64,000 nucleotides of DNA from a virus: positions 1 through 64,000 of IMG/VR virus record IMGVR_UViG_3300028008_001363; one strand, written 5' to 3'. The notes under the pieces are model-generated. The model did not search any database, had not been told where the DNA came from, and worked only from the letters and a program-made list of their open reading frames with translations. A program made the translations under genes and the position numbers. Shown here piece after piece: positions 14,928-43,344 of the stretch; the stretch's first letter is position 1; each line of letters opens with the position of its first letter.

Positions 14928-14935
14928 GATAAATA
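14928..14935 (+). promoter_or_regulatory. T4-like late promoter
   Basis: GATAAATA upstream of 14963. Confidence 0.55.
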
Positions 14936-14962
14936 CATTTATAATTGTGGAGAAATACAAAT

Positions 14963-15469: not shown

Positions 15470-15879
15470 TGAAATACGAAGAATTTAATGAAGGTGTAGA
15501 ATACGGTGATTTAGTATCTTTAGTAGATAAGACTGTATCAGTTGGCGAGTTTAAACCTAAAACAGGTACAGAAGATGATGTTATTGTTATAGGATTTTAT
15601 ATCAAAGACGAAGCACCAGCACTAGACTTAGCAAAGTTTATTGAAAGAGGTGTAACATCTATATTAGATACTGAAGTTTCTCCAAACCCAAATGACGTTG
15701 GTATGTATATTGTATTTGTTGAAGTTGAGAACGAAGATTTAATGAACGTTACTATGAGTTTGATAAACGACATTCATGGATTAGTAAAAAATGATGAATG
15801 GGAAATTAAGTTCTATAAGCGTCCAGCAATTAAAGTAAAGGCAGAAGAAATTAAAGAATGGCTAAAGAAGAACCGTTAA
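15469..15879 (+). CDS. hypothetical protein with capsid-targeting-like N-terminus
   Basis: MKYEEFNE resembles the T4 internal-protein leader MKTYQEFIAE. Confidence 0.6.
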   Translation: MKYEEFNEGVEYGDLVSLVDKTVSVGEFKPKTGTEDDVIVIGFYIKDEAPALDLAKFIERGVTSILDTEVSPNPNDVGMYIVFVEVENEDLMNVTMSLINDIHGLVKNDEWEIKFYKRPAIKVKAEEIKEWLKKNR

Positions 15880-29312: not shown

Positions 29313-30140
29313 ATGAATACTTTATTGAGAACCGCAATTGTGGGTACGGCATTGTTAGCAACGCCATTCGCCGCATTTGCCGAAGCAGAAGCAGAAACGC
29401 AATCAGGCGTCTCAGTTTCTGGTACATACGAAGGTACTGCTACCGATTCGGGTACATACACACAAGAACTTGAAGTTGTGGTTGGTATGAACTCTGAGGC
29501 TGGTTCAGTTACAGCGAAAGTTGATGAAACTGGAACTGTAGGTGATTTGTACCTTGACACATCAATTTCTTCAATTGACCTTAGACTTGGTAAAGTAGAT
29601 GGTGAAATGGGAATGAAAGCGTCTACTACAGTCGCTGGTGTCACAGTTTCAGCATACAGCCCATCTGGCGCAGGAAAATCTACAGAGATTGGCGCTAGTA
29701 CAGATATTGGTCCGTTAAGCATTGCAGGTGAAGACATCTTAGATTCAGATAGACTTCTAAGTGCAGGCATGAACGTAGCAGGAGTTGACTTAGGTGGTTC
29801 ATACCAAAAGACAGCAACTGGCACTAACCAAATCATGGACGCTGGTTTAGACATCATGGATGTTACAGTATCAGTAGCAAACGCATCAATCGGTGATGCA
29901 AGTGTTACTAAAACTGGTGATAACAAACATGCAGTGTTAGGTACAATGACAGGTGCTACAAACGGCACAGATGTTAGAGGTATCAAACTTGCCTATGGTG
30001 ACCTTTCTGTAAAAGTAGTTGAACTAAATGCTACTAACACATATACTGCCGCTTTAGAGCGTGGTATTATGACGTATCAATATGAAAAAATTGAAAACGG
30101 TGCAGACGAGGTTTCAGTTGGAGTTAAGTTTACTTTCTAA
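29313..30140 (+). CDS. Porin-like outer-membrane protein
   Basis: Signal peptide (AFA), amphipathic beta strands, C-terminal VGVKFTF. Confidence 0.7.
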   Translation: MNTLLRTAIVGTALLATPFAAFAEAEAETQSGVSVSGTYEGTATDSGTYTQELEVVVGMNSEAGSVTAKVDETGTVGDLYLDTSISSIDLRLGKVDGEMGMKASTTVAGVTVSAYSPSGAGKSTEIGASTDIGPLSIAGEDILDSDRLLSAGMNVAGVDLGGSYQKTATGTNQIMDAGLDIMDVTVSVANASIGDASVTKTGDNKHAVLGTMTGATNGTDVRGIKLAYGDLSVKVVELNATNTYTAALERGIMTYQYEKIENGADEVSVGVKFTF

Positions 30141-30171
30141 TGTTTATTATTTAAACAGTAATGAAACTATA

Positions 30172-30198
30172 AAGCCCGTCTTAATGACGGGCTTTTTT
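30172..30198 (+). terminator. Intrinsic terminator
   Basis: AAAGCCCGTC-TTAAT-GACGGGCTTTTTT. Confidence 0.9.
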
Positions 30199-30213
30199 GT
30201 TTGGCGTTAATTA

Positions 30214-30221
30214 GATAAATA
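30214..30221 (+). promoter_or_regulatory. T4-like late promoter
   Basis: GATAAATA. Confidence 0.55.
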
Positions 30222-30261
30222 CTTGTTAGACAAATACAAAAGCACAATGGGAGAGTAAACC

Positions 30262-30702
30262 ATGACTAAATCATTTTTACAATGGTGGCTATTTTTCGTC
30301 CTTCAATTAATAATTCTAGGCGCAGGATATACCTACGACTTACACACATACATATTAAACAATGACCAAACGTATATCAGTTTCGTTTTACTTGGTATCT
30401 GGTTACTTACGAGTGTTAGAATTGGTTATAAGATGGGTAGAAATATAAAATCATCGAATGAAAAGTTTTGGTTCATTGCCGAAACTTGTATGGCAATTGG
30501 TATGATGGGAACAGTTTTAGGTTTCATCTTAATGCTAGGTGGTTCAAATCTCGAATCTATAGACCCAACTGATGTAGAAGGTATGAAAAACGTAATCGGT
30601 CAATTAGCAAAAGGTATGGCAACTGCATTATTAACAACTCTAACAGGATTAATTGTTTCAGTTTCTTTAAGAACGCAATTAATGATTGGAGAGGGTGAAT
30701 AA
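30262..30702 (+). CDS. MotA/TolQ/ExbB-family proton channel subunit
   Basis: IGMMGTVLGF...GMATALLTTLTGL. Confidence 0.85.
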   Translation: MTKSFLQWWLFFVLQLIILGAGYTYDLHTYILNNDQTYISFVLLGIWLLTSVRIGYKMGRNIKSSNEKFWFIAETCMAIGMMGTVLGFILMLGGSNLESIDPTDVEGMKNVIGQLAKGMATALLTTLTGLIVSVSLRTQLMIGEGE

Positions 30703-31341
30703 ATGTCTAACCGATACGGTTCTAACCTATCGTTCAATGATGTATTGTTTAACGCACTTTTAGGTTTTGTAGTTTTATTCGTATTAGCACTTCTGCTAAT
30801 CAATCCAATTACAAAGAAATCAGATATTCCAGCAAAAGCAGAGATTCTCATTACATTAGAATGGGATGATGAAGTAGGTGATGATATAGATATCTGGGTA
30901 CAAGGTCCAACAGGCGTACCAATATCTTTTCAAAACAAAACAAATGGAGTTATGCACCTAGATAGAGATGATTTAGGCAAAACATCAGACTATATGTGGA
31001 TAGATGGCGAAAGAATAATTATAAAGTTGAATCGTGAGGTTGTAAGTATGCGTGGCATAGCACCAGGTGATTACTATATCAACATACATGTGTATAGTAA
31101 GAACAGTAAAACTGGCCCAACTAAATATACATTGACACTACTAGATGTTAACCCTTATAGAGAGGTTTATGTTATGCAAGGCAAGTTGAATAAACGAGGT
31201 GAAATAGTTAGACTTCCAGGTTTTACACTAGATGAAGAAGGTGTAGTAACTGATGTTTGGACAAGTGACAAGATTGTAGTGGGTGCTAAAAACAGAACGC
31301 TTATAAGTGATGTTTCTGGAACAAACGAGGATGGCAACTAA
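30703..31341 (+). CDS. ExbD/MotB-like partner with periplasmic beta domain
   Basis: SFNDVLF TM with conserved Asp; ITLEWD..DIDIWV..P, LDRDD (YfaP-like). Confidence 0.6.
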   Translation: MSNRYGSNLSFNDVLFNALLGFVVLFVLALLLINPITKKSDIPAKAEILITLEWDDEVGDDIDIWVQGPTGVPISFQNKTNGVMHLDRDDLGKTSDYMWIDGERIIIKLNREVVSMRGIAPGDYYINIHVYSKNSKTGPTKYTLTLLDVNPYREVYVMQGKLNKRGEIVRLPGFTLDEEGVVTDVWTSDKIVVGAKNRTLISDVSGTNEDGN

Positions 31342-31352
31342 GGAGATTATGG

Positions 31353-31967
31353 ATGTTTTGGACTGAATTCACTGTTGATACGTTAATTTTATTATATGTA
31401 CTAGGATTATTTGCACTAATTTTGGTATGTTTATATGCATTAATTCAAAGCAAAGCAAACAAACTATACACTTTCATTATTATTCCATTAGCACTTATAA
31501 TGGCAAGTATGACTTGGCAAGGTATTAAAGTTTTACAAGGTATGCCAGTTTATGGATTACCAGAAAAAGAAGTAGAAGTTATGTGGGTAAACGACAATAA
31601 GCCATGGATATACGTTATATTGAAGAAAGATGGAGTTCCAGTTTTATATAAAATTGATTGGACTGAAGAGAATAAAAAGAAGATGAAAGAATTAGAGAAA
31701 ATGATTGGTTCATCTATGGCTCAAGGAAAGTTTGAAGAGACAAAATCAAACAGCGGTGAATCAAATTCGTATGTGTTCACTCCTATGATGGACTTGACTG
31801 AACCTGAAGAGAAACGCCAAGACGGTGACGGTGTGGAATACACACCTGCACAAAGTATTAATACTAGTCCTAACAGACCTAGTTTAGAAACTGTTGTTGA
31901 TGGCGAAGCAGTGATATTATCACCAACAGTTTATGGTCCATTGACAGCAGAACAATCAGGACCTTAA
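31353..31967 (+). CDS. membrane protein of the ExbB/ExbD-like operon
   Basis: Two N-terminal TM helices; SD AAGGAG. Confidence 0.6.
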   Translation: MFWTEFTVDTLILLYVLGLFALILVCLYALIQSKANKLYTFIIIPLALIMASMTWQGIKVLQGMPVYGLPEKEVEVMWVNDNKPWIYVILKKDGVPVLYKIDWTEENKKKMKELEKMIGSSMAQGKFEETKSNSGESNSYVFTPMMDLTEPEEKRQDGDGVEYTPAQSINTSPNRPSLETVVDGEAVILSPTVYGPLTAEQSGP

Positions 31968-31982
31968 TAGAGGAGAGAGAAA

Positions 31983-32252
31983 ATGGAAGGTATAGGAGCA
32001 GTATTAGTAATAGGACATTTTGTAATATCGATATTTAATGTACCACTAGGCAATCCAGTTATTTACTCGTTGCCCTTTTCAGATATGAAAACATGTGAGC
32101 AATATGCAGAGTATTTGCCACCAGAGCCGATTAAACTAAACATAGAGTGGAATCATTCAACTAAAAGTCAATGTATGACCACTGGTCAATTTAAAAAGAT
32201 GATGGAAGCAAGGGGAGTTCAAAAGCCAGCAACAGGCACACCTGAGAAATAA
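31983..32252 (+). CDS. small exported protein
   Basis: Hydrophobic N-terminus, two Cys. Confidence 0.5.
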   Translation: MEGIGAVLVIGHFVISIFNVPLGNPVIYSLPFSDMKTCEQYAEYLPPEPIKLNIEWNHSTKSQCMTTGQFKKMMEARGVQKPATGTPEK

Positions 32253-32260
32253 GGATTATT

Positions 32261-33109
32261 ATGAGAAAACTATTAGATTACATAAAAGAGTCATTCATTG
32301 GAAGAACAATACGTTGGATATTTAAAAATCCTTACTTTGTTGTAGTCATAGTTTTACTTGGGGTAGTAGGACAAGACAAAGGCGTTCAGTGGTACAATGA
32401 TTACATGGTATTATACGAAGAAGCAAATAACAAAATTGAAGAAGAAGAGAATACAGGCGGCTTAGAATTAACAAAGATTGATGATGCGTTATACACGTTA
32501 ATAGGTACAGTAAAAGAAGGTGACTGTGGCAAGATTGCAAAAGAAATGCCAGACGAAGGCTGGTTTACTGTAATATTAGAAAGTCCAGGTGGCAATCTCG
32601 CAGATGGTTCTTGTCTTGCGGCACATATGAAACTTCGTAATGTTGTTACTGTTGTTAGAAGTACACCAGTTATGAATGAACTTGGCGAAATGATTTATAC
32701 ACCAGGAACAAACGTTGACGAAAATACACCAGACTTTATGAAAGGTAAATCAGTTTGTGCATCAGCATGTGGTTTGATGTTCTTAGCAGGTGATAAACGA
32801 TATCTAATGGGTGATGTTTACTTTGGTATTCATGGTCCAGGAACACCACCAGGTAGTATGAATGGTGCAAATCCTGCGGCTATAGAAAGTTCTGCATTTA
32901 GAACAGCATCATCATTGTTACAGTTGTTGAAATCTTTAGGTGTTGAAGACGAAGGTTTAAGAATGTTATTCATTCAAATTCCAAACGCAACAATGTATTG
33001 GTTGCATCCACGAGACTTTGAAGTTAAGCCAGGACTAGTTAGAATAGCAACAGACTATAGAGATTTCTTTGGCACTACAGGCAGTGACCCAGAAGGTGGC
33101 ATGAGATGA
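32261..33109 (+). CDS. Membrane-anchored ClpP/crotonase-fold protein (putative periplasmic peptidase)
   Basis: N-terminal TM; LESPGG, CASAC..FLAG..R, GIH. Confidence 0.7.
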   Translation: MRKLLDYIKESFIGRTIRWIFKNPYFVVVIVLLGVVGQDKGVQWYNDYMVLYEEANNKIEEEENTGGLELTKIDDALYTLIGTVKEGDCGKIAKEMPDEGWFTVILESPGGNLADGSCLAAHMKLRNVVTVVRSTPVMNELGEMIYTPGTNVDENTPDFMKGKSVCASACGLMFLAGDKRYLMGDVYFGIHGPGTPPGSMNGANPAAIESSAFRTASSLLQLLKSLGVEDEGLRMLFIQIPNATMYWLHPRDFEVKPGLVRIATDYRDFFGTTGSDPEGGMR

Positions 33110-33180
33110 CTATAAAAGATAAGTTGATGATGGTATTTGTTACCATACTCGTTGCAGGATACATAGTCTATCTAAATTGA
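33106..33180 (+). CDS. 24-aa single-TM peptide (not in ORF track)
   Basis: ATGA coupling; MTIKDKLMMVFVTILVAGYIVYLN. Confidence 0.35.
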   Translation: MTIKDKLMMVFVTILVAGYIVYLN

Positions 33181-33186
33181 TAAATA
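33179..33186 (+). promoter_or_regulatory. T4-like late promoter
   Basis: GATAAATA. Confidence 0.5.
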
Positions 33187-33235
33187 CAGTATACGATTAA
33201 ATTCGTATATAAATTTAATCAATTAGAGGTGACAT

Positions 33236-34282
33236 ATGTTAAAATCATTTTTTCTAACAAAGGAATACGGAGCATATGCATGGCTAATGTTAGCGTTTCT
33301 TTTGAGTTTGATTTGGTACAACGTAGAAATATTAGTTTTCTACAATAGTTGGAACAAAGAAATCTATGACGTAATTCAATCACTACAAGAAGAAAGATTC
33401 TGGGAACTGTTTCTGGGATGGGACGCTGGTAGATTTTTGAATTTCATTACTTTGACTGAGGGAGTACAACCATCCTTTGTTGAAATCATAGTCCTATATA
33501 CTCCAATCGCAGTATACGCCACATGGCAAACACAACGATACTGTTTTAGATGGCGAGAAGCAAACACTAAACACTATATGACACGTTGGGAAAACTCAAC
33601 AGCACAAATAGAAGGTGGCTCACAGCGTATACAAGAAGACTTAATGATTTTTGGTAAGACACTTCAAGGACTCTTCACTGGTTTCTTCAGTGCGATACTT
33701 ATTCTTTTTGCGTTTCTTCCAATTCTATGGAATCTATCAGAGAGTTTACCAGTTTGGAATGGACAAATCATTCCTGGTTTCTTAGTATGGGTAGCATTAT
33801 CTGTATCAATTGGTGGTACATTGATATCACTTCTATTAGGTTGGAAACTACCTAAACTTGAATATAACAATCAGGTAGTAGAAGCCAAGATGAGAAAGCA
33901 ACTAGTACATTCAGAAGATGACTTTAGTGCAAGAGCAACATCAACACTATTTCCAATGTTTTATTCAGTTCGTAGAAACTACTATAGACTATTCAACTGG
34001 TACATGGGATTTGGTGTATGGCAAACAGCATTCGGATTATGTGTAGGTAACTTAGCACTAGTTGTTTTAGCACCAGCATACTTTGACCAGTTAATTACAC
34101 TTGGTGTATTATTTCAAGTTCTAAACGCATTTGGTAGAGTTGAAAGTTCAATGGGTTATTTCATCGATAGATGGACAACAATCGTTGACTTCTTATCAGT
34201 CATTAGACGTTTGAGAGAATTTAACGTGGCACTTGACGAAGCAGACAGTGTTACTTTTGATGATGATGGAAATAGAATCTAA
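33236..34282 (+). CDS. sbmA: SbmA/BacA-family peptide transporter
   Basis: MLKSFF, FRWR, IEGGSQRIQED, LEYNNQVVEA..RK.LV..ED, WTTIV..S..RL.EF. Confidence 0.88.
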   Translation: MLKSFFLTKEYGAYAWLMLAFLLSLIWYNVEILVFYNSWNKEIYDVIQSLQEERFWELFLGWDAGRFLNFITLTEGVQPSFVEIIVLYTPIAVYATWQTQRYCFRWREANTKHYMTRWENSTAQIEGGSQRIQEDLMIFGKTLQGLFTGFFSAILILFAFLPILWNLSESLPVWNGQIIPGFLVWVALSVSIGGTLISLLLGWKLPKLEYNNQVVEAKMRKQLVHSEDDFSARATSTLFPMFYSVRRNYYRLFNWYMGFGVWQTAFGLCVGNLALVVLAPAYFDQLITLGVLFQVLNAFGRVESSMGYFIDRWTTIVDFLSVIRRLREFNVALDEADSVTFDDDGNRI

Positions 34283-34997: not shown

Positions 34998-35005
34998 GAT
35001 AAATA
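34998..35005 (+). promoter_or_regulatory. T4-like late promoter
   Basis: GATAAATA. Confidence 0.6.
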
Positions 35006-35038: not shown

Positions 35039-37468
35039 ATGAACTTAAAAGATATACTAGAGGCAGAGAGCAAACAACTGGTTATTATATATCCTGGTCG
35101 CTTTCACCCGTTCCACATTGGACACGGTAAAGTATACAAATACTTGAAGCAGAAGTATAGCAATGCAAAAGTATTCATTGCTACCTCTGGCAAAGTAGAT
35201 GGCGACAGGTCACCTTTCACTTTCGATGAGAAGAAAAAGATGATGATGTTGGCTGGTGTTGATGCTAGTGCTATCGTTCAAACAAAATCTCCATACCAAT
35301 CTATAGAAATCATGGAAAGATTTGATAAAGACACTACAGTTATGGTGTTTGCAGTATCAGAAAAAGACATGGCAGAAGACCCGAGATTTGATTTCTCTAA
35401 TGGTCTCAAGTTAAAGAAGAATGGTGAACCAGCATACTTACAGAAGTGGACTAATCTCAATGATGCTGAAACATTTGGAACTCGTGGTTATATAGCAACG
35501 ACTCCTACATTTCCATTTGAAGTTCTAGGACAAAAAATTAATAGTGCATCACAAATTAGAAATATGATTTCAAAAAGCGATGATACTAAACTAACTCAAT
35601 TACTACAAGACTTATACAGTGTTACAGATGTGCCGCAAGATGTAATAGAGTTATTCAAAAACAAAATAGGCAATACAGAAACCATGAATGAAAACTGGGA
35701 CGAACACTCGTTTTCTAAATACTTAAAAGAGAACGTTATCGAGGACAATATTATGAAAGATACCATATTACAAGCATTAACAGAAGGCAAGAGCCCACAC
35801 AAAAAGGGAACTAAAAAGTATAAAGCCCATATGGCAGCCATGCATGCCGAGTCAATCGAAGAAGAGTTTGACAGAAAAGTCAAAGAAGTTTTAGAAAGTA
35901 GTGCTGACACAGACGAGAAATTAGAATTCATTCATAATGTACTTCAAAACGCAGATGGTGATGGACACAACGATGAGTTGATGGTAACCAAAGCACAATT
36001 CTATGTAGGGCAAATTAAACCTAGAAACGAAGAAGATAAGAAGAAATTATCTTACATCGCAACAACATTAAGTGCATCGACAGACGAAGATAGTTATTTT
36101 GACCAAACGATGGTAGACCAAGCGATGGAATATGTTGAAGATATTATAGAACGCCCAGTGGATGAAAGTGTAAACGAAGCAGATGTTGATTTAAAACCAA
36201 TAGAAGGAAGTTTTGATTGGGTAAACTCAATGTCAGATGGAACACTTGAAACTCTTAAATCTGCGATGAATAATGATTGGGATATGTTGGATGGTATTAA
36301 AGACCTAGCAGACTTTAAAAGAACTATTGATATTTTCTTTACCAACGAAGAAACACCAGTACCAGAAGATATCGCTAAAATATTTAATAAATTATTAGCA
36401 AGGGATGAGAAGGATATTGCTAAATTTAATGAGTTTATACGCCGTGCTTTTATAGATGCGGGAGAAGAACTTGAAGAACTGGAGACGATGTATGAAACAA
36501 CTGACCACGAAGTAAGTATGGCTAGAAAAGATGTTAGCAGACTAGCAAAGTATTCTTCAGAGTTAGAACAAATGCTTAGTAATGTTTCTGAAGAAGAAGG
36601 CTTACAAGGTTGGGTTCAAGCAAAGATTACTAAAGCGGCTGATTATATCTCAAGTGTAAAACATTACATGGAAGGTGATACTACAGAAGTAAACGAAGCG
36701 GTACGAGATAGTTCAGAAGGCTTTGGTGGACAAGCGATAAACTTTATCCATGACTTGTGTATGTTACACGATGGTGTTAAAAGAGACCCAGCAGGATTAA
36801 AATATCTTGGAAAATCTGAAATGTGGGATGAAGGCAGTATTCTAAAAGATAAAGGTAAATTAACTACTCTAATGCTTTGGGTTAAGAAAAACAAAGACGT
36901 TGTTGAAAAACGTTTTTCACGTATGTTTGGTACCTATAGCAACAGAGATGAAAATGGAAAAGTAACAGCATCAGATGGTAATCAAATTCTTAATAACATC
37001 ATTAAGAAAATCCCCACAGTAAATGAAAACTTCAAAGATGTTACACCTTTTGGTTATGGTCCTGATGATTACGATGAGAAAGATGTTGCACCTGAAGACC
37101 ACGGCGGTGACTTGAAAAAGATGCAAGACACATATAAGCATAATGAAGATAGAAACAATCATTCAGAAAACATTCTTATGTTAGCACAAGCATTCGGTGA
37201 TAGAGGTGAGATTAAAGCAGTTGAAGGTCTTTTAAAGATAATCAAACGTCAAGGTCATACGACACCTGAACAATCAGATATGATGTATAAGGCAATTCAC
37301 AAGAAATATTACAAGCAATTGTTTCCAGAAACAGAAGCAGAAGGTAATGAATTTTCTGGTGCATTAGCAAAAGCAAAAATTGATGGCAAAAAGACATTTG
37401 ACGTTGATGGAAAAACTTATAAAGTTAAAGAAGCACTAAGTAAACTAATAGACCAACAGAAAATTTAA
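35039..37468 (+). CDS. Multi-module putative internal head protein; N-terminal HxGH (cytidylyltransferase-like) nucleotidyltransferase
   Basis: YPGRFHPFHIGH and SASQIR; many xNE/xTE junctions. Confidence 0.75.
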   Translation: MNLKDILEAESKQLVIIYPGRFHPFHIGHGKVYKYLKQKYSNAKVFIATSGKVDGDRSPFTFDEKKKMMMLAGVDASAIVQTKSPYQSIEIMERFDKDTTVMVFAVSEKDMAEDPRFDFSNGLKLKKNGEPAYLQKWTNLNDAETFGTRGYIATTPTFPFEVLGQKINSASQIRNMISKSDDTKLTQLLQDLYSVTDVPQDVIELFKNKIGNTETMNENWDEHSFSKYLKENVIEDNIMKDTILQALTEGKSPHKKGTKKYKAHMAAMHAESIEEEFDRKVKEVLESSADTDEKLEFIHNVLQNADGDGHNDELMVTKAQFYVGQIKPRNEEDKKKLSYIATTLSASTDEDSYFDQTMVDQAMEYVEDIIERPVDESVNEADVDLKPIEGSFDWVNSMSDGTLETLKSAMNNDWDMLDGIKDLADFKRTIDIFFTNEETPVPEDIAKIFNKLLARDEKDIAKFNEFIRRAFIDAGEELEELETMYETTDHEVSMARKDVSRLAKYSSELEQMLSNVSEEEGLQGWVQAKITKAADYISSVKHYMEGDTTEVNEAVRDSSEGFGGQAINFIHDLCMLHDGVKRDPAGLKYLGKSEMWDEGSILKDKGKLTTLMLWVKKNKDVVEKRFSRMFGTYSNRDENGKVTASDGNQILNNIIKKIPTVNENFKDVTPFGYGPDDYDEKDVAPEDHGGDLKKMQDTYKHNEDRNNHSENILMLAQAFGDRGEIKAVEGLLKIIKRQGHTTPEQSDMMYKAIHKKYYKQLFPETEAEGNEFSGALAKAKIDGKKTFDVDGKTYKVKEALSKLIDQQKI

Positions 37469-37472
37469 TATA

Positions 37473-38339
37473 ATGAACTTATTTGAATTGACACAATCTA
37501 AAGCCGCACAATCAGAAGTTATTTCTGAGGGTGGTTCTATGCCAGGTGTCGGTGCTATTCATATTGATGAAATCAATCCAACACTTATTCCATTAGAGAA
37601 AGAGTTAGGTATCGATTTAAGAAACAATGCATTAGGTAGTGTTGGTAAAAGAGAATTCAGTGGCGACATTGATGTTGCATTAAAGATTGATGCAGACAAG
37701 ATACCAGAATTCGTAGAAAGACTTAAAAAAAGTAGCCAAATAATGGACATTGCAAAGTCAAGTGTGATTATGACAAAGGTTAAAATCATGGACTTTGATA
37801 AGACTAAAGAAGATGGTAGACCAAGAACTGGATATGTTCAAGTAGATTTCATGCCAGGTGACCCAGATTGGTTAAAGACTTATTATCATTCACCAAATGA
37901 AAAAGATAGTCAGTACAAAGGTGTTTATCGTAATCTAATGATTGCCTCAATTGCTGGTAATTTAGATATAGAAAACAGTGAAGAAACAATTGATGACGGT
38001 AGACCACTTCAATCAAAAAGATTTATGTTTAGTCCGAGAGATGGACTAGTAAGAGTTTTGCGTAGACCAGTTCCAAAAGCATCAGGCAATGGATACACTA
38101 AGAAGAACAATAATAAAATTATCGATGGTCCGTGGAAGACAGCAGACTCGATTGCAAAGAATTTAAAACTAGATAATGGCGAAGACCTATATAGTTATGA
38201 GACATTAGTTACTGCAATTAAGAAGAACTTACCACCTGAAGACCAAAAGAATATATTCACAGCATTTACTAATAACAATACGATAAAAGACATGGGCATC
38301 CCACCAGATATCCAAGAGTATGCAAAGGGTGAATTATAA
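37473..38339 (+). CDS. Pol-beta-superfamily nucleotidyltransferase, putative head cargo
   Basis: LGSVGK...SGDIDVA and VQVDFM; leader ending VISE|GG. Confidence 0.7.
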   Translation: MNLFELTQSKAAQSEVISEGGSMPGVGAIHIDEINPTLIPLEKELGIDLRNNALGSVGKREFSGDIDVALKIDADKIPEFVERLKKSSQIMDIAKSSVIMTKVKIMDFDKTKEDGRPRTGYVQVDFMPGDPDWLKTYYHSPNEKDSQYKGVYRNLMIASIAGNLDIENSEETIDDGRPLQSKRFMFSPRDGLVRVLRRPVPKASGNGYTKKNNNKIIDGPWKTADSIAKNLKLDNGEDLYSYETLVTAIKKNLPPEDQKNIFTAFTNNNTIKDMGIPPDIQEYAKGEL

Positions 38340-39550
38340 TGAGACTAGATGAATTAGATAAGAAAATCACACAGTCTGACTTGGATGCATTAGAAGTATT
38401 CGCTGATAGAATATTTGGCAAAGTTGGTATTGATGTAGAATTTACACGTCACTTCTTAGACAGAGTAAACGATGACCGTAACGGTGAGCAAATTACTGGT
38501 AGTGAACTAACACGTCTATTCAAACAAGAATACAAACGTTGGGGTAAGCCAATCGCACAGATGGGTCCAGATGCTGAAGCAGTAATGAAAGATTTACAGA
38601 CAGATATCAATATGCCATTTGCATTAAGATGGGATAGAGATAACAATGAATTAGATTTGATTGTTAAAACTGTTATGCGTAAGAAAGACTTTAAAACATC
38701 TAACAAAGAATTCCCAGTAGAATCAATAGAAGAAAGTCCTTCAGTAATGTCATCACAACAAATGTTGACAAAACTATCAAAAGAAATGCAAGGCACACAT
38801 ACGGGCGCAATGAACCCAAACTCTGATTGGTCAAAGTTTGTTCTATCTCATAAAGGATTTACACTTAAAGATGTACAAGTTGACCAGATACCAACAGCCG
38901 TTAACAATGACGGAATGAGTCAGGCTAATATTGAAAAATATAAACAAGCAGATTTATCAAAATTCCCACCTATGGTAATAGGCAACGACGGATATATATT
39001 AGATGGTAATCATAGACTTCAAGCATATAAGGCACAGGGCATTAAAACAGTCAAAGCCTACATAGGCGAAGAATCTGAGATTTGGCAGTGGAACAAAGAA
39101 GACCCTAATAATCCTGAAGTATACATTCAAGGATATGGCAGACTTATGCTTAATCAAATAGAAGACAGTATAGTTGGCAAACTTAAAGAACTTACTAAGA
39201 TGGCAGAACGAGGCGACTTTGAACAAATACAAAGTCTATTAGATAGAGATGTTTTACAATTAATGATGAAATCAGTCGTTGATACAAAAGCAGAACTACA
39301 ATCAACTCGTAAAAGAGGTGGACCAAAATCTCGTGGTATTAATAAAGAATCTATATTTGATGCATTAGAAGATGATATGGCAGAAAAGTTCGATGCCGTA
39401 AAAAAGAGTGTAACAGAGTATGGTGTGGGTAAAGTCGTACCAGGAATTAATACTACTGTTGATGTTGGACCTAACGAAATTAAGAAACAAGCCGCTAAGT
39501 TCGGTAATAAAGTCAGTAAAGACGGGTTACCTAAGAAAAATTTACGATAA
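38339..39550 (+). CDS. Multi-module putative head cargo: RelE/BECR-like and ParB/Srx-like domains
   Basis: EFTRHFLDRV...IVKTVMRK; PPMVI...ILDGNHRL. Confidence 0.6.
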   Translation: MRLDELDKKITQSDLDALEVFADRIFGKVGIDVEFTRHFLDRVNDDRNGEQITGSELTRLFKQEYKRWGKPIAQMGPDAEAVMKDLQTDINMPFALRWDRDNNELDLIVKTVMRKKDFKTSNKEFPVESIEESPSVMSSQQMLTKLSKEMQGTHTGAMNPNSDWSKFVLSHKGFTLKDVQVDQIPTAVNNDGMSQANIEKYKQADLSKFPPMVIGNDGYILDGNHRLQAYKAQGIKTVKAYIGEESEIWQWNKEDPNNPEVYIQGYGRLMLNQIEDSIVGKLKELTKMAERGDFEQIQSLLDRDVLQLMMKSVVDTKAELQSTRKRGGPKSRGINKESIFDALEDDMAEKFDAVKKSVTEYGVGKVVPGINTTVDVGPNEIKKQAAKFGNKVSKDGLPKKNLR

Positions 39551-39561
39551 AAGGCTCACAA

Positions 39562-40791
39562 GTGTATAACAAAGATACCATGTGTTATAAAACTTGGAAT
39601 GATATTATCATATCGTTACCCAAGAAAACAGTTAGTTGGTGTTGTAAGACAAACTTAACTGAACAACAAACAAAAGAAACTACATTTGATTTAGATATCT
39701 TAAACAATAAAGGTATAGATTTTCTTTTCAATCATCCAATTCTTCAAAAGAGAAAAAAAGAACTAGCAACTGGTATAAGATGTGCAGATTGTCACGTATG
39801 TTGGGAATCAGAAGATAGGTCTGGAGAAAGTCATAGAACATTATATACTAATCATTCTGTTGAATTTGATTATGATACGCCTGCTACCTTTATTGAACTT
39901 GAACTGACAAACAAGTGTAATTTAGCCTGTGTATACTGTGGACCACAACTTAGTTCGAGGTGGCAAAAAGAATTAAAACAACGACATCCTGATACTGAAG
40001 ATGAAATATTTCATAAAGTAATGGATTTACTGGCTGAGTATTTCAATACCAAACTAACAAATAAACCATATATCAATATCAGTCTATTAGGTGGTGAGCC
40101 TTTCTTTACTGACCACATGTATGTATTCCTAGAATACCTTTCAAAATTCCATGTAAAATCTGAACAAGAAGTAACAGTTACAATCACAACTGGCATGGCT
40201 TTTCCTGAAAAGAAATTTACGAAATTTATTGAGTTAATTGAACGTACTCCTAACATAATATATATTATGCAGTTATCTGGAGAAGCAATTGATAAGAGAG
40301 CAGAACTAATTCGATGGGGTCTAAACTTTGAAACGTGGGACAATAACTTAGATATGTTCTTAACAGAGTCAGCAAGATTGAAGAATTTAGTTATAGGATT
40401 TGGTTGTGCCCATAATGCCTTATCTCTGCCGTATTTCAAAGACTTTCTTGTATACATTAATAAAAAACTGGCAAAACATGAATACAAATCTGTTGTGTGG
40501 TTTTTAATCAACTATATAGAAGACCCACAGCACTTATCCATATCAATGCTAAATAATTATCATGCAGATGCTGTAACAGAGCAGATAGAATATATGGAGA
40601 ATGAAATGACCAATCTTTATAAGAAAGATGAGTATATTACTATGCTGAGGTCACTCAGAAATCAAATTTTGAATGCGAATGTCACTACAGAGATGAAGCA
40701 AAATGCTTCAGATGAATTTAAAAGATTAGAAAATAGACGAAATATATCATTCAAATCTGAATTCCCGCACTTCGATGAACTAGTTAAATGA
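39562..40791 (+). CDS. Radical SAM protein
   Basis: CNLACVYC (CxxxCxxC), GGEPF; N-terminal Cys-rich C..CC..CxxCW. Confidence 0.9.
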   Translation: MYNKDTMCYKTWNDIIISLPKKTVSWCCKTNLTEQQTKETTFDLDILNNKGIDFLFNHPILQKRKKELATGIRCADCHVCWESEDRSGESHRTLYTNHSVEFDYDTPATFIELELTNKCNLACVYCGPQLSSRWQKELKQRHPDTEDEIFHKVMDLLAEYFNTKLTNKPYINISLLGGEPFFTDHMYVFLEYLSKFHVKSEQEVTVTITTGMAFPEKKFTKFIELIERTPNIIYIMQLSGEAIDKRAELIRWGLNFETWDNNLDMFLTESARLKNLVIGFGCAHNALSLPYFKDFLVYINKKLAKHEYKSVVWFLINYIEDPQHLSISMLNNYHADAVTEQIEYMENEMTNLYKKDEYITMLRSLRNQILNANVTTEMKQNASDEFKRLENRRNISFKSEFPHFDELVK

Positions 40792-40798
40792 CAATTTA

Positions 40799-40806
40799 GA
40801 TAAATA
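40799..40806 (+). promoter_or_regulatory. T4-like late promoter (leaderless geometry)
   Basis: GATAAATA 5 nt before ATG at 40812. Confidence 0.6.
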
Positions 40807-40811
40807 CTATT

Positions 40812-41015
40812 ATGAAAATATATGAAGTTATAGGCGAAACAACAGCAGGTGCAATCGCAACTGTGGCATCTCCATTAGGTGGCGGTGACCCTTCGGCTAG
40901 TGTATATAGTAAAAAGAAAAAGAGCAAGAAAAAGAAGGCTAAGATGGGATATAGTGCTGATGTAGGCAATTTATCATACAAGCATCCAGTCAAAACTCCA
41001 ATGATTAAAAGGTAG
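40812..41015 (+). CDS. Small basic putative internal head protein
   Basis: MKIYEVIGE leader followed by a Glu-free, Lys-rich body. Confidence 0.65.
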   Translation: MKIYEVIGETTAGAIATVASPLGGGDPSASVYSKKKKSKKKKAKMGYSADVGNLSYKHPVKTPMIKR

Positions 41016-41022
41016 AAGACTT

Positions 41023-43344
41023 ATGAAATTGACACAAATGATAGAACAAAAAGAACGTCCTTACGTGGTCTTTCACGCTAAAAAAGGCAAATATGAAACT
41101 CATGCAGTATCATCTTATGATGCGGCAAAGAATGCGGCTAAACATTGGAAATTAAAATCAACTGCTGGTGTTACACCAATGTTAGCGGATGTAGAACACG
41201 TTGCTGAAAAGTCAGATAAGAACTGTGGTTGTGGTCAAGACCCATGTGTAACATACGGTAATAAGTCACATCAAGCAGAATCTTATGACGACTATCATGG
41301 TGATATGTCTAAAGAAGAATATGACAAAACAGTAAAAGGTTCTGAAATGGAATATTCTGTTTGGGTTGGCGGTACTGAAGTCAGTGATAATTATTTACCA
41401 TATGACGAAGCAGTCAGATTATACGACAAATATAAAGCACAAGGCTATGATGATGTTCAGTTAGATGCTCGTATTAAAGAATCTGTAAATGAAGCAGAAA
41501 AGCGTTGGAAACAAACTAGTATGTCGCCAGCAGAAGCAGAAAAAGAATACGGTAAAGAAAACGTAAAAGTTAAAAAAGGTGCATTGCGTAATGGCGATGA
41601 CATGGTAGAAGTATTTGTTGAATCATATTCTCCAGGTGATGAGTACGCTGATTCAGAAGGCATGGTAAGTAATTGCTGTGGTGCTCCTATGATGGACTAT
41701 AACGATGGACATGGTAGATGTGGTGATTGTAAAGAAATGGCAGCCGGTGAATCTGAAGAAGAATTTTACGAAAGTTATAGTAACGATGGAAAAACAGTTA
41801 CTATATCAGATTACCAACCTGAAGGCGAAGCAAACGCACATAAGAAATTTAACTTGAGAAAGCAGATACACAGAGGCGAAGATGGCAAACTAATCAAATC
41901 GCCTTATGGTGGATATAAAGTTTCATTTCATGGTAGTGCAGAAGACGTAAAAGCATATGCTGAAAAGAACTTAGGTGAAGCATCTAAGAAACAAAAACCT
42001 TTCTATGACAAGCCACTTAAAGAAGAAGATGCAGAAGCAATTGCGGCTAGAGATGAATTCTTAAAAGTTATGGATATGAAACCAAAGAGTAGCAATAAAG
42101 CAATTGATACAATTAAAAAGATTGTAGCAGACAAACAAAATATGCAAGTCAAATTTGACGATGGCAAGATGAAAGTAGATTTATATACAGCATCAGCCGT
42201 TGTGGCAGTATACAATGCTGTAAACGATGCTAACAAAGAAAAAATTGATAATATGCTAAGAACTAAAGAAGGCATGCTTAGAATGTCAAACTTTGCATTT
42301 AGCAAACTTAAAGAAGGTATTGCAGAAGGCAAACGTATTGATGAGATTTTACCATTAGTTGGTGCGATAGCAGGCGCTATCGGTAGAAAAGTTGCTGGTG
42401 CGGCAGTTAAAAACGTTGCTAAAAAGGCAGCCGGTGCGGCAGCAATGGGTTCAGCAAATGCGGCTGGTAGTGCTATTGGTAATGCGGCACAAAGTTCAGG
42501 TATGAATGCTTCAGCAAAAGCAAAAGGCAAAAAACTTAATGCAGTTAAAGAAGCAGGCGGATATTATACACAACCAGTATACGACATGATTAAACAACAT
42601 GGTTATCCAAAAGTAATGCATAGATTACTATCTGCCTTAGATGCAGATGTAATACAGGATTTTATAAACCGTGAGCCAGACTTAAATGAAACAGTAAATG
42701 AAGCCGACATATTAGGCGATAATTATGCGAATGTATATTATGATTACAGTGAAAGTTTTTATATGATTGATGTATATAAAGATGGCAAAAAGGTAGAAGA
42801 ATATGATGATTACATTGGCGCAAATGAAGAAGGTGACCCAATCAAAGATAAGTTCTTAGAACTTGTTAAGAAAGCCGGTTTAGAACCAGAAGGACTTAAT
42901 CTTATATCAACAGGTGGCGATGAACCTGATGAATACGGTGTATTTAAGAATGGTAAATTCAACTGGGATAAGAATGAGGCATTACCTGCAGTAGGAACAG
43001 CAGTTGCTGGTGGTCTTAAGAAGGCCGCAGGTGCAGTTGGAAAATTAGCAAACAAGGCAGATACAGCGGCATTTGGTCTCAAAGCCAAATCAGGCGTTAA
43101 GTACAATGCAAATAGTCCACAAGGCAAAATGATTAGAAACATGGCTAAAAATGGCAAAACTCAAGGTGCTAGAAGCGATGCAAAGAAGGACCTAGTTAAA
43201 GGTACAGTTGCTGACTTGAAAAAGAAAGTCGGTGGTATTGGCGGTATTATGAAAACTGCGGCAGGTTCATCTGGTTTCTTACCAGCATCCAAACAGTTCG
43301 CACAAGACATGATTGAAAAAGCAATCAAGGACGCTGACAAATAA
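41023..43344 (+). CDS. Multi-module polyprotein, putative internal head cargo
   Basis: MKLTQMIE leader; abrupt compositional blocks separated by VNE/VKE/IDE/E-SY. Confidence 0.7.
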   Translation: MKLTQMIEQKERPYVVFHAKKGKYETHAVSSYDAAKNAAKHWKLKSTAGVTPMLADVEHVAEKSDKNCGCGQDPCVTYGNKSHQAESYDDYHGDMSKEEYDKTVKGSEMEYSVWVGGTEVSDNYLPYDEAVRLYDKYKAQGYDDVQLDARIKESVNEAEKRWKQTSMSPAEAEKEYGKENVKVKKGALRNGDDMVEVFVESYSPGDEYADSEGMVSNCCGAPMMDYNDGHGRCGDCKEMAAGESEEEFYESYSNDGKTVTISDYQPEGEANAHKKFNLRKQIHRGEDGKLIKSPYGGYKVSFHGSAEDVKAYAEKNLGEASKKQKPFYDKPLKEEDAEAIAARDEFLKVMDMKPKSSNKAIDTIKKIVADKQNMQVKFDDGKMKVDLYTASAVVAVYNAVNDANKEKIDNMLRTKEGMLRMSNFAFSKLKEGIAEGKRIDEILPLVGAIAGAIGRKVAGAAVKNVAKKAAGAAAMGSANAAGSAIGNAAQSSGMNASAKAKGKKLNAVKEAGGYYTQPVYDMIKQHGYPKVMHRLLSALDADVIQDFINREPDLNETVNEADILGDNYANVYYDYSESFYMIDVYKDGKKVEEYDDYIGANEEGDPIKDKFLELVKKAGLEPEGLNLISTGGDEPDEYGVFKNGKFNWDKNEALPAVGTAVAGGLKKAAGAVGKLANKADTAAFGLKAKSGVKYNANSPQGKMIRNMAKNGKTQGARSDAKKDLVKGTVADLKKKVGGIGGIMKTAAGSSGFLPASKQFAQDMIEKAIKDADK

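Follow-up and report, generated by a model that had tools for sequence, protein, structure and literature searches.

Genes, relatives and promoter-like boxes at the locus

The window analysed here is a 64,000-nt stretch within a 99.9-kb fragment. The phage it comes from is giant, T4-like and uncultured, and its closest cultured DNA polymerase is that of Agrobacterium phage Atu_ph07 (48% identity). A sequence-only reading had claimed five genes with similar N-termini in a cluster, which lies beside the polymerase gene. All five (A, B, C, E and F) lie where that reading put them and begin as it gave them, with MNLKDILE, MNLFE..VISE, MRLDE, MKIYEVIGE and MKLTQMIE, respectively.

34998–35005, + strand: GATAAATA, late-promoter-like box, 33 nt before gene A
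35039–37468, + strand: gene A, 809 aa; leader, NMNAT/cytidylyltransferase-like domain, variable module string
37473–38339, + strand: gene B, open reading frame of 288 aa
37530–38336, + strand: B domain, Pol X-like (Pol beta superfamily) nucleotidyltransferase by predicted structure
38339–39550, + strand: gene C, 403 aa; leader MRLDE, several modules
39562–40791, + strand: gene D, twitch-domain radical SAM protein (NF033640, 191 bits, cut-off 170)
40799–40806, + strand: GATAAATA box, 5 nt before gene E
40812–41015, + strand: gene E, 67 aa; leader MKIYEVIGE (40812–40838), then a small, very basic peptide
41023–43344, + strand: gene F, 773 aa; leader and about 11 modules

Synteny of the locus extends to 52 IMG/VR contigs, in nearly all of which the adjoining DNA polymerase is colinear and 75–96% identical. 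Protein lengths in relatives span 373–1436 aa for A, 379–1247 aa for C and 547–1287 aa for F, and sizes are constant for B (288 aa) and E (about 68 aa). In one relative (L010) the polymerase is 96% identical vs. only 40% for F. Gene D lacks a leader and is missing from four relatives in which E and F persist (L010, L006, L018 and L007), others having it; it is probably lodged in the cluster and not part of the cargo system proposed below. The locus adjoins replication genes and lies outside the head module, a position that counts against a head-cargo reading, and membrane-protein genes stand upstream of it.

Late promoters had been claimed ahead of all five genes, but only two copies of GATAAATA occur in the cluster, upstream of A and E, which indicates two putative operons, A-B-C-D and E-F. 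The window holds 12 copies, all on the coding strand, where 5.8 would be expected over both strands. Among related loci with upstream sequence, [GT]ATAAATA stands 30–34 nt before 11 of 11 A-type genes, and the box recurs at the same distance ahead of 19 of 33 E-type genes. The E box comes as close as 5 nt to its start codon, which counts against a head-cargo reading. GATAAATA also heads virion-protein genes of the window's contig and, in a sister contig (G002), stands 25 nt ahead of the portal gene, the first in the head operon.

Leaders, modules and x-x-Glu joints

35039–35062, + strand: A leader MNLKDILE; relatives keep MNL[KNS][DE][IL][LT]E
36164–36178, + strand: A connector ESVNE, residues 376–380; matches the connector consensus, upstream of module A381–486 in relatives
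36683–36697, + strand: A connector TEVNE, residues 549–553; module contexts in P0054 and L010
37016–37027, + strand: A connector TVNE, residues 660–663; module contexts in P0035 and P0054
37473–37529, + strand: B leader, residues 1–19, ending ISE, then GG; low pLDDT, start of homology
41023–41046, + strand: F leader MKLTQMIE; relatives M[KR][LFI][TSK]QL[IT]E, then at least five unrelated modules
41272–41280, + strand: F joint QAE before SY, residues 84–86; homology starts, Glu conservation
41473–41493, + strand: F double joint IKE-SVNE, residues 151–157; homology ends, conservation, pLDDT gap
41614–41622, + strand: F joint FVE before SY, residues 198–200; at least 12 different sequences follow the VFVE-ending module in relatives
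41764–41772, + strand: F joint FYE before SY, residues 248–250; homology ends, downstream contexts
42307–42345, + strand: F triple joint LKE-GIAE-GKRIDE, residues 429–441; Glu conservation
42346–42552, + strand: F Gly/Ala/Lys-rich module starting ILPLVG; sequence
42544–42552, + strand: F joint VKE before AGGYY, residues 508–510; module contexts
42682–42702, + strand: F double joint LNE-TVNE, residues 554–560; homology ends and starts at residues 556–560, module contexts
42970–42978, + strand: F joint KNE before ALPAVG, residues 650–652; 11 homology ends at residue 651
42979–43341, + strand: second F Gly/Ala/Lys-rich module; sequence

More than 50 syntenic contigs conserve the five leaders, which behave as separable units in that unrelated modules come after them in relatives; the L-[TI]-E of the F leader is retained in 25 of 26 aligned sequences, and E-type genes, 67–68 aa in most relatives, begin MKI[YH]E[IV][IL]GE. 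Leader and internal connector appear equivalent, since one module takes either upstream: inside F, ESVNE precedes the module starting [A/G]EKRWKQTS, and at the start of proteins of 187–278 aa the leader MKTFTEYLKE does so. Only 7 of the contig's 134 ORFs carry such a leader, and one outside the cluster (15469–15879, MKYEEFNE) falls in phrog_13138, a family labelled 'virion structural protein'. These observations bear on the idea that the proteins stay outside virions, as late cytoplasmic or envelope-directed products whose N-terminal likeness reflects the translation-start preference of an AT-rich phage, with another protease or none involved. The replication genes alongside and membrane-protein genes upstream would suit it, as would GATAAATA ahead of non-structural-looking genes (e.g., at 30262 and 33236) and the lack of any Pfam or PHROG annotation tying F, C and E to virions. 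We nevertheless judge it very unlikely, given how few ORFs bear the leader, the virion-protein family of the one outside the cluster, the conservation of leaders while downstream sequence changes, and the virion reports or annotations for three groups of relatives (those of B, the A domain class and the cyanophage polyprotein family).

Comparison with relatives resolves A, C and F into mosaics, that is, the strings of separable modules that had been proposed, with swaps, losses, duplications and reordering exactly at x-x-Glu joints. When 124 relatives were compared all against all and internal homology ends were scored by their offset to the Glu of [LIVMFY]xE, 330 ends fell at offset 0 vs. about 50–100 at neighbouring offsets; scored in the same way, the control motifs [LIVMFY]xD and [LIVMFY]xK gave 72 and 95. 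Homology ends thus sit on that Glu. Across 247 distinct contexts (pairs of module and upstream 7-mer), P1 was Glu in 167 (68%; background 7.7%), P3 Val in 79 and P2 Asn in 72, and the consensus of the connectors reads E-[E/S]-V-N-E. Chimeras are sharp at identities of at least 90%, with the AGGYY module found after five different x-x-E contexts and three different modules found after the WDKN-ending module. Modules of F are inserted in A-type genes of relatives: in P0054, TTEVNE is followed by the F module starting AGGYY; in L010, the module downstream of A's TEVNE is instead preceded by WDKNVNE; and in both P0035 and P0054 the C-terminal A module is preceded by the WDKN-ending F module and then VNE. 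Stand-alone homologues exist as well, e.g., genes 30 and 31 of the Methylophilales phage Melnitz, which end at predicted joints (the end of gene 30 is the position of F's LKE). At the level of compared sequences, the module-connector grammar, the leaders and the shuffling are established.

Within F, the joint Glu is invariant or nearly so across 30 aligned relatives. Eleven homology starts fall at residue 86 of the QAE joint, where Glu is present in 28 of 28; residues 153–157 of the IKE-SVNE joint collect 16 homology ends, with [ILM]KE retained in 29 of 30; and 11 ends lie at residues 250–251 of the FYE joint, which has at least 12 different downstream contexts. In the triple joint, E431 and E441 never vary, and 27 of 28 sequences retain E435. 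Ahead of the AGGYY module stand NAVKE, SEGVNE, TTEVNE, ESEVTE, ESVNE and others, with P1 Glu in 36 of 36 distinct contexts, and relatives of the module before the KNE joint end WDKN-VNE and continue into other modules. Relatives number 240 of similar length and 193 shorter, mostly part-matches at high identity. The F model is poor (mean pLDDT 41.8), yet joints bound all four of its folded islands (108–149, 162–199, 358–435 and 566–623), IKE-SVNE falling in a low-pLDDT gap (150–161) between two of them.

Several details of the original reading require revision. [LIVM]xE is not enriched (2.07 per 100 aa in the cluster vs. 1.97 in the contig's other ORFs), so motif counting alone performs no better than chance and predicts nothing. 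This counts against a head-cargo reading, as many internal copies would need protection by folding. Breakpoints do fall on hydrophobic-x-Glu, but several listed [LIVM]xE lie inside folded modules, and some genuine joints read Q-A-E, F-Y-E or K-N-E. In Q-A-E and K-N-E, P3 is non-hydrophobic, which counts against the protease rule. VNE was claimed four times, whereas A and F hold five; VNEA has four copies in the contig's proteome, every one in A or F. Leaders, mosaics and Glu breakpoints thus stand as observations and motif density and promoter number do not; in the interpretation, separable leaders and module swapping at x-x-Glu joints are supported, the promoter count and junction list being inexact.

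The connectors might instead be uncleaved linkers or recombination joints within intact multidomain 'polyvalent' proteins acting in the virion or the late cytoplasm. Phage polyvalent proteins join 2–15 conflict-related domains, Pol beta-type nucleotidyltransferases and ParB-like nucleases among them, and phage N4 packages its virion RNA polymerase without processing it (PMC5512222); the mild codon bias at P3 Val (GTA 70% vs. 43%) could reflect short DNA microhomology (GTA AAY GAA). However, VNE is spelled by eight codon triplets over 46 contexts, with Asn and Glu codon use at the gene average, so the connector is kept at the protein and not the DNA level, and a plain linker needs no invariant Glu at a fixed position with preferred P3 and P2. 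Leaders also share their end motif and are interchangeable with internal connectors, stand-alone modules are common and hence work alone, and Pfam, PHROG and NCBIfam searches found none of the embedded peptidases that typify polyvalent proteins. We regard intact polyvalent proteins as quite unlikely.

Encoded domains and head genes of the lineage

The N-terminus of A matches PF01467 (residues 17–104) and phrog_395 (residues 10–231), with weak NCBIfam NMNAT matches below cut-off; by sequence it is an NMNAT/cytidylyltransferase-like enzyme that keeps an HxGH-type nucleotidyltransferase region. The AlphaFold2 model of B (mean pLDDT 93.5) shows a predicted Pol X-like nucleotidyltransferase fold, with VIA-align Z of 9.7 (DNA polymerase beta), 9.3 (Thermus Pol X), 9.2 (TdT) and 8.4 (ASFV Pol X), a Foldseek E of 2e-5, and invariant G55, D65, D67 and D125. 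Its fold begins after ISE, the leader being disordered (pLDDT 46–52 vs. >90 for the remaining model), and matches of 545 cluster representatives start at about residue 13–21. In relatives, [LIVMF]xE followed by [GS]G nearly always precedes the domain. Two points count against a head-cargo reading: the conserved x-x-E-G-G could be a fold element rather than a cut site, and the B relatives of PA5oct and Atu_ph07 begin right at the domain, without a leader. Protein C comprises module 1 (residues 6–128; phrog_23027 at 10–123; a stand-alone 149-aa gene in Melnitz, 65% identity), the connector PVESIEE, a possible ParB-like nuclease (133–244; phrog_18056 at 177–250, weak, E 8e-4), more modules and a C-terminal one (361–403). 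F matched no family in Pfam, PHROG or NCBIfam searches. Both of its Gly/Ala/Lys-rich modules begin right after a joint Glu, and pLDDT is low there; JGI names a relative (P0013) a YeaQ/YmgE-like membrane protein, and the peptides are possibly membrane-active.

Relatives of at least two module classes occur in other phages' virions by mass spectrometry. Cyanophage virion proteomes have repeatedly yielded NMNAT-like and cytidylyltransferase proteins (PMC9602691), and the S-RIM4 cytidylyltransferase begins MKKFSAFLSE. EST35_0231 of PA5oct, which is distantly related to B, carries the annotation 'structural protein, ESI-MS/MS', and gene 29 of S-SCSM1, from a cyanophage polyprotein family that has a module in common with A, is annotated as 'virion protein'.

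The window's contig, about 26% complete, has no protease, scaffold or capsid gene. The sister contig G002 (polymerase 92% identical) bears the same kind of polyprotein and encodes a portal, a PF03420 protease (E 1e-26), a scaffold and a PF07068 capsid protein (E 2e-83) with ESVLE and YLSE in its N-terminus, ahead of the conserved core. Family matches thus place a gp21-type (S77) prohead protease and a gp23-type capsid protein in the lineage, and from G002 we infer a protease for the window's own phage.

The proteins could also be loaded and cut mainly as assembly or DNA-packing material (scaffold or core, charge neutralisers, filler of a very large head), most fragments being expelled or inactive in the host, as with T4 gp22, gp67 and gp68 or the phiKZ inner body. 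F and E (the latter 19% Lys) are largely basic, low-complexity or predicted disordered. T4 core proteins are cleaved at many sites into small peptides, and phiKZ and SPN3US propeptides have redundant sites and cleared fragments (PMC5694885, PMC9026906), which the tandem joints IKE-SVNE and LKE-GIAE-GKRIDE resemble. We nonetheless consider this explanation unlikely. A gp22-like scaffold and an acidic core-like protein are already encoded separately in the head operon of the lineage, several modules are enzymes keeping catalytic residues (those invariant in B, the HxGH-type region of A), and such variation is unexpected for essential assembly parts among phages with 96% identical polymerases.

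A proposed model of packaged, cleaved cargo and its likeness to T4

We consider it fairly probable that the locus, which adjoins the DNA polymerase gene of a giant T4-like marine phage, is a hypervariable late-gene region that encodes head cargo. With T4-style leaders and modules swapped at Glu joints that fit the head protease rule, the proteins are probably packed, cut and delivered with the DNA. In this model, a leader of 5–19 residues would dock each protein to the scaffolding core during prohead building. A, C and F would be chains of autonomous modules of 24–150 residues, linked by short E-[E/S]-V-N-E connectors ending in Glu. The gp21-type (S77) protease would cleave after the Glu of hydrophobic-x-Glu, removing the leader and splitting the chain at exposed connectors, and the freed pieces would stay beside the DNA inside the head and exit together with it on infection. 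As any connector-bearing module could be loaded and released, recombination between phages would shuffle modules freely into a plug-in cargo repertoire, for which the NMNAT/cytidylyltransferase-like (A), Pol X-like (B) and ParB-like (C) proteins and the basic (E) and Gly/Ala/Lys-rich (F) peptides are candidates. Targeting, cleavage, retention, injection and any anti-host role are all inferred.

Our literature search found no paper describing such jointed head-cargo polyproteins. The likeness is to T4, whose capsid targeting sequence, MKTYQEFIAE (PMC8442874), sends proteins into the prohead, where gp21 cuts after Glu with few other determinants (PMC9026906, PMC5694885). The leaders of the locus are of this type, with Met, a basic or Asn residue, hydrophobic positions and a hydrophobic-x-Glu end. 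Counting against the model, the joints differ in their P3/P2 preference, which is Val-Asn here, whereas that of T4 is usually quoted as Leu/Ile-x.

Source DNA, gene order and promoter-like boxes

The virus record IMGVR_UViG_3300028008_001363 measures 99,856 bp, with a CheckV completeness of 26%, and the window (its bases 1-64000) has a GC content of about 35% and carries nearly all of its genes on the plus strand. The 935-aa DNA polymerase encoded directly downstream of the cluster is closest to those of Agrobacterium phage Atu_ph07 and Sinorhizobium phage Phosso (48%) and next closest to those of CBB/GAP32-type jumbo phages of 350-380 kb (42%), and because of these affinities we consider the record a fragment of an uncultured giant T4-like phage. 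Neither megablast with the whole locus nor tblastn with protein F gave a match against 50,697 phage records; relatives were compared as IMG/VR loci. The five leader-bearing genes of the cluster are present with the N-termini that the sequence-only reading had given them, and one gene without a leader lies among them:

35039-37468, gene A, leader-bearing
37473-38339, gene B, leader-bearing
38339-39550, gene C, leader-bearing
39562-40791, gene D, twitch-domain radical SAM gene (NF033640) without a leader, amid the cluster
40812-41015, gene E, leader-bearing
41023-43344, gene F, leader-bearing

A late promoter ahead of each of the five genes, as had been proposed, was not borne out. The late-promoter-like box GATAAATA occurs 12 times in the window, always on the coding strand (5.8 copies expected over both strands), and only two copies fall within the cluster, upstream of A and of E, which suggests two operons and not five promoters. 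Both boxes are conserved, and the same box precedes virion-protein genes on the contig as well as the head operon of G002, a sister contig with head genes, where GATAAATAC lies 25 nt upstream of the portal gene. Late transcription of A and E, as read from the conserved box, is putative. The copy before E (40799-40812) ends just 5 nt from the ATG and keeps this position in 19 relatives. It would imply either translation of E from a transcript with a very short leader or none, or use of the box for F, with E carried on an upstream transcript.

The genes upstream of the cluster (29313-34282) encode membrane proteins, with GATAAATA boxes upstream of 30262 and 33236; two of them (282 and 348 aa) are conserved beside the cargo locus in relatives. 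A role for E as the peptide substrate of D was rejected because several relatives carry E without D. About 10 more ORFs with N-terminal CxxxCxxC-like radical SAM signatures form a minus-strand block at approximately 74-89 kb of the contig, outside the window, and together with D they make an unusually large set for one phage.

Modules, joints and leaders

A leader followed by modules that each close in x-x-Glu is the grammar of these proteins, and as a reading of the sequence it is solid. Tripeptide counting proves nothing here, as [LIVM]xE is equally dense in the cluster (2.07 per 100 aa) and in the rest of the contig (1.97 per 100 aa); simple enrichment in the cluster was accordingly rejected. 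The claim that the modules are split at hydrophobic-x-Glu junctions thus finds no support in motif density, but it does stand with respect to the position at which homology breaks. In an all-against-all comparison of 124 proteins, internal homology ends coincided 330 times with the Glu of [LIVMFY]xE, compared with approximately 50-100 times at neighboring offsets and with 72 and 95 times for the Asp-ending and Lys-ending control motifs, respectively. VNEA occurs four times in the contig's proteome, each time within A or F.

When 17 modules from A, C and F were projected onto the full set of relatives, 247 distinct upstream contexts resulted, and the last residue before the module (P1) is Glu in 167 of them (68%; background 7.7%), reaching 100% for several modules (36/36, 23/23). 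The contexts of the two modules with the lowest share, F335-431 and C361-403, suggest that their starts were misplaced by one or two residues. At P3, Val occurs in 79 contexts, Leu in 21, Thr in 16 and Met in 15; P2 is Asn in 72 and P5 is Glu in 74. The module starting AGGYY, for instance, is preceded by NAVKE in F, by SEGVNE and TTEVNE in two related proteins (P0035 and P0054) and by ESEVTE and ESVNE in the related locus L010, and the module ending WDKN continues with E-ALPAVG in F and elsewhere with VNE and three other modules. Chimeras showing exact joints have high identity. Among 30 aligned F relatives the joint Glu is invariant or nearly so, the triple joint LKE-GIAE-GKRIDE included. The codons for VNE take eight combinations over 46 contexts, with a mild GTA excess for Val; conservation of the connector is at the protein and not at the DNA level, and the diversity of its codons weakens the view that connectors are solely DNA-level recombination signals. 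An AlphaFold2 model of F (mean pLDDT 41.8) served for the positions of folded islands only. That the cluster proteins are multidomain proteins which stay uncleaved sits poorly with the constancy of the joint Glu, and we consider it quite unlikely.

All five genes encode an N-terminal leader of about 10 residues ending in hydrophobic-x-Glu, conserved in relatives with unrelated modules after it, and such starts are found in only 7 of the contig's 134 ORFs. The F-type leader M[KR][LFI][TSK]QL[IT]E precedes at least five unrelated modules across phages. One module stands both after ESVNE inside F and after the leader MKTFTEYLKE at the start of proteins of 187-278 aa, so that leader end and internal connector are interchangeable. 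The capsid-targeting sequence of T4 is MKTYQEFIAE (PMC8442874).

Similar starts were observed elsewhere. Outside the window, a 334-aa ORF on the minus strand (contig 97479-98483; L062:180-1184:-) begins MRAFEIFNE, has GATAAATA 34 nt upstream and returned nothing in family searches; it is a possible additional cargo gene with a leader. Two small genes at 14945-15879 match 'virion structural protein' PHROGs (phrog_12928 and phrog_13138), with GATAAATA at 14928, and the ORF matching phrog_13138 (15469-15879) has the leader-like start MKYEEFNE. In Atu_ph07 (L059, 45616-58182), six genes follow the B-type nucleotidyltransferase gene, the first encoding 362 aa with the start MRLFQLLE. The remaining five encode paralogues, each about 255 aa long, with M[RK]W[HDQ]QL[ITN]E at the N-terminus and a YRG motif; these paralogues may be Alt-like ADP-ribosyltransferases with targeting leaders.

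Module shuffling in related phages, which had been proposed for checking, was found. Synteny of the locus (A-B-C-(D)-E-F, a small gene, the polymerase) extends over 52 IMG/VR contigs, in nearly all of which the adjoining polymerase is colinear and 75-96% identical. Lengths range from 373 to 1436 aa for A, 379 to 1247 aa for C and 547 to 1287 aa for F, and are constant for B (288 aa) and E (about 68 aa). Among the relatives of F, 240 are close to it in length and 193 are shorter; the majority match it in part, often at 80-95% identity, and some of its parts sit within A-type proteins bearing the cytidylyltransferase domain. In L010 the polymerase is 96% identical, F is 40% identical with A-like material, and A (1094 aa) carries two copies of an F module.

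Stand-alone homologues of the modules, likewise sought, exist as well. In Melnitz, a T4-like Methylophilales phage, the product of gene 31 (149 aa) corresponds to the first module of C and ends at C's PVE-SIEE joint, and that of gene 30 (172 aa) ends exactly at the SKLKE position of F. In short proteins of 180-280 aa, a leader is followed by between one and three modules of F. It is doubtful that the 65-aa protein P0238 represents a natural stand-alone first module: where it ends and P0084 of the same contig starts, the sequence looks like a frameshift within HVAE-EVITE.

Protein B, head genes and virion data

Among 545 cluster representatives of B relatives, many carry the B domain N-terminally, internally or C-terminally in proteins of 350-1800 aa. 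The matches start at B residue 13-21, the domain itself starts with [GS]G, and [LIVMF]xE almost always stands just before it; judging from these matches, B is itself a module. Its AlphaFold2 model, based on 47 relatives, has a mean pLDDT of 93.5 (about 50 for residues 1-19), and the best structural matches are family X polymerases.

Table. Structural matches of the B model
DNA polymerase beta (residues 91-335): Z 9.7; rmsd 3.6 A over 181 residues
Thermus Pol X: Z 9.3
TdT: Z 9.2
ASFV Pol X: Z 8.4; 157/176 residues of ASFV Pol X
Terminal uridylyl and poly(A) transferases: Z 7-8; core only

Foldseek TM values are just 0.35-0.39, the sequence-profile E value to Pol lambda is 0.075, and no 8-kDa lyase domain aligned in the structural comparison. 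The palm contains the G[SG] motif and three catalytic carboxylates, with G55, S56, D65, D67 and D125 invariant or nearly so in the 47 relatives. B is predicted to be a Pol X-like nucleotidyltransferase. Searches of Pfam, PHROG and NCBIfam returned nothing for F, E or B. In three proteins of other phages (P0390, P0372 and P0374), B-type and A-type cytidylyltransferase domains are fused in one polypeptide, which suggests joint action of the two enzymes. In PA5oct (L058), Atu_ph07 (L059), S-RIM4 (L065) and Mel-JY01 (L066), genes or domains bearing a KxDG ligase-type motif lie beside or are fused to B- or A-type nucleotidyltransferases; this neighborhood, recurring in four unrelated phages, hints at a virion-borne set for nucleic-acid repair or tailing.

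Head genes, including a gp21-type protease, were not found on the contig, which is 26% complete. Such genes do occur on the sister contig G002. Its polymerase shows 92% identity and its F-type protein has the same joints, for example MFE-SMNE, ETE-SYSPGD and AVNE-EDEEA, and the contig encodes in a row a portal, a small protein, an acidic protein, a PF03420 protease of 209 aa (E 1e-26), a coiled-coil scaffold and a PF07068 capsid protein (E 2e-83); the protease is of gp21 type (Peptidase S77) and the capsid protein of gp23 type. The N-terminus of the latter shows ESVLE and YLSE immediately ahead of the conserved core, an arrangement comparable with the loss of the 65-residue N-terminal propeptide by T4 gp23 (PMC5694885). 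Within the window, a 745-aa protein (17416-19653) with two AAA+ regions matches phrog_4871 'ATP-dependent protease' (E 2.5e-250) and is a second candidate protease or unfoldase of the phage.

Virion data come from other phages. Pseudomonas phage PA5oct has a B relative (E 2e-10, 31% over half of B) that carries the annotation 'structural protein, ESI-MS/MS' and lies within a run of genes so annotated, some of which start MRLDEIQ or KIKDILVE. The first domain of A belongs to the NMNAT-like/cytidylyltransferase class; an NMNAT was detected by mass spectrometry in S-SCSM1 virions, and such proteins are, according to the authors, recurrent in cyanophage virion proteomes (PMC9602691). The S-SCSM1 peptides of that study number 974. 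The cytidylyltransferase of cyanophage S-RIM4 starts MKKFSAFLSE. Residues 419-593 of A match a 708-aa S-SM2 protein located between g16 and g17. S-SCSM1 gene 29 is annotated 'virion protein'; no entry in the supplement of the S-SCSM1 paper confirmed it for the mass-spectrometry list. That the cluster encodes non-virion proteins is an explanation that we regard as very unlikely.

Interpretation and comparison with known systems

The T4 mechanism appears the most economical for the leader-and-module grammar. The leader would dock to the prohead core and a gp21-type protease would cut after Glu, as in T4 (PMC3012670, PMC9026906, PMC5694885), and the products would be kept in the head. When Asp replaces this Glu in T4, processing is blocked and targeting is not (PMC9026906). 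The T4 core proteins gp22, gp67 and gp68 are likewise cut by gp21 at many x-x-Glu sites into small peptides in the prohead (PMC5694885), and the cluster proteins could correspondingly be assembly material; yet gp22, gp67 and gp68 are conserved assembly proteins of the head operon, whereas the locus described here is hypervariable, occupies another part of the genome and includes enzymes, making that explanation unlikely.

Cargo loaded and released in the T4 manner may extend well beyond this phage. The cyanophage g16-g17 family (S-SM2 SSM2_109 and S-SCSM1 gene 29, with DUF192 and DUF6321 modules) has one module in common with A (30% identity, E 2e-6), the same x-x-Glu punctuation and a module order that differs among phages; small genes near it start MKTLKQFLKE, MKTFKQFMSE or MKSFQDFLQE. 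It comprises about 493 Kyanoviridae and pelagiphage records and differs from the present locus in genomic place and module set. The literature searched gives no function for the family, and full-text searches found no description of such polyproteins. Tentatively, and with less than even confidence, we propose that marine T4-like phages (140-kb cyanophages, pelagiphage relatives and giants of at least 300 kb) share a combinatorial cargo, in which a universal head-loading leader and a universal protease-cut connector of the E-S-V-N-E type allow any small module to be loaded and released, the connector doubles as an in-frame exchange joint, and a pool of hundreds of modules is continually re-dealt as injected first-strike tools. 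Candidate tools would be the Pol X-like nucleotidyltransferase and the NMNAT-like enzyme (nucleic-acid repair or tailing), nucleases and membrane-active peptides. If true, such a system would represent a counterpart, in the phage capsid, to polymorphic toxin cassettes, would account for a hypervariable island beside highly conserved replication genes, and would mean that abundant ocean phages bring in with their DNA a much larger and more changeable protein set than the T4 model suggests. The loading and release rule would be simple enough for reading from sequence. This reading would also assign many orphan phage genes to a functional class, would point to enzymes acting in the first seconds of infection, ahead of phage gene expression, and would offer a natural design for packing several proteins from one gene into a T4-type capsid.

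IPI, IPII, IPIII and Alt of T4 carry a short leader ending in hydrophobic-x-Glu, as do the proteins here (MKIYEVIGE, MKLTQMIE, MNLKDILE) and the short relatives of the locus with their T4-like MKTFTEYLKE. Presumably common to both are a gp21-type protease (here predicted from G002), late expression (putative here) and, by analogy, small basic proteins and enzymes as cargo; in the T4 group, too, the cargo set varies among related phages (PMC3012670, PMC9026906). Searches of the cluster proteins in Pfam, PHROG and NCBIfam gave no family match to IPI, IPII, IPIII or Alt, and the likeness is one of mechanism, not of descent. T4 cargo consists of single units cut once (Alt at both ends), whereas a single leader here precedes roughly a dozen modules at most, with internal connectors, shuffled within and between genes, and the preferred site, at which cutting is predicted, is V-N-E in place of L/I-x-E. 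The proposed novelty relative to T4 is thus the polyprotein form with connector-based shuffling.

As proposed here, the giant phages phiKZ, 201phi2-1 and SPN3US, of another lineage, load many proteins, inner-body and ejection proteins among them, into the head and possess a gp21-related protease that cuts after Glu, and their propeptides hold several redundant cut sites in a short motif, S/A/G-x-E (PMC5694885, PMC9026906). Their extra sites lie in long propeptides that are discarded to leave one mature protein, whereas the regions between sites are here autonomous, exchangeable modules. Polyvalent proteins (Iyer et al. 2017, PMC5512222) resemble the present ones in being multidomain, predicted to be delivered with the DNA and extensively mosaic, in the analogy with viral polyproteins, and in domain classes, Pol beta-type nucleotidyltransferases and ParB-like nucleases among them. 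Compared with theirs, the present modules are far smaller and mostly without a known family: A has one recognizable enzyme domain, F none, and C a weak ParB-like match (E 8e-4). Polyvalent proteins are released by embedded peptidase domains, whereas no peptidase family was found in A, B, C, E or F in Pfam, PHROG or NCBIfam; loading by a T4-type leader and release by a head protease acting in trans are proposed instead, and such release without an embedded peptidase would be what is new relative to polyvalent proteins.
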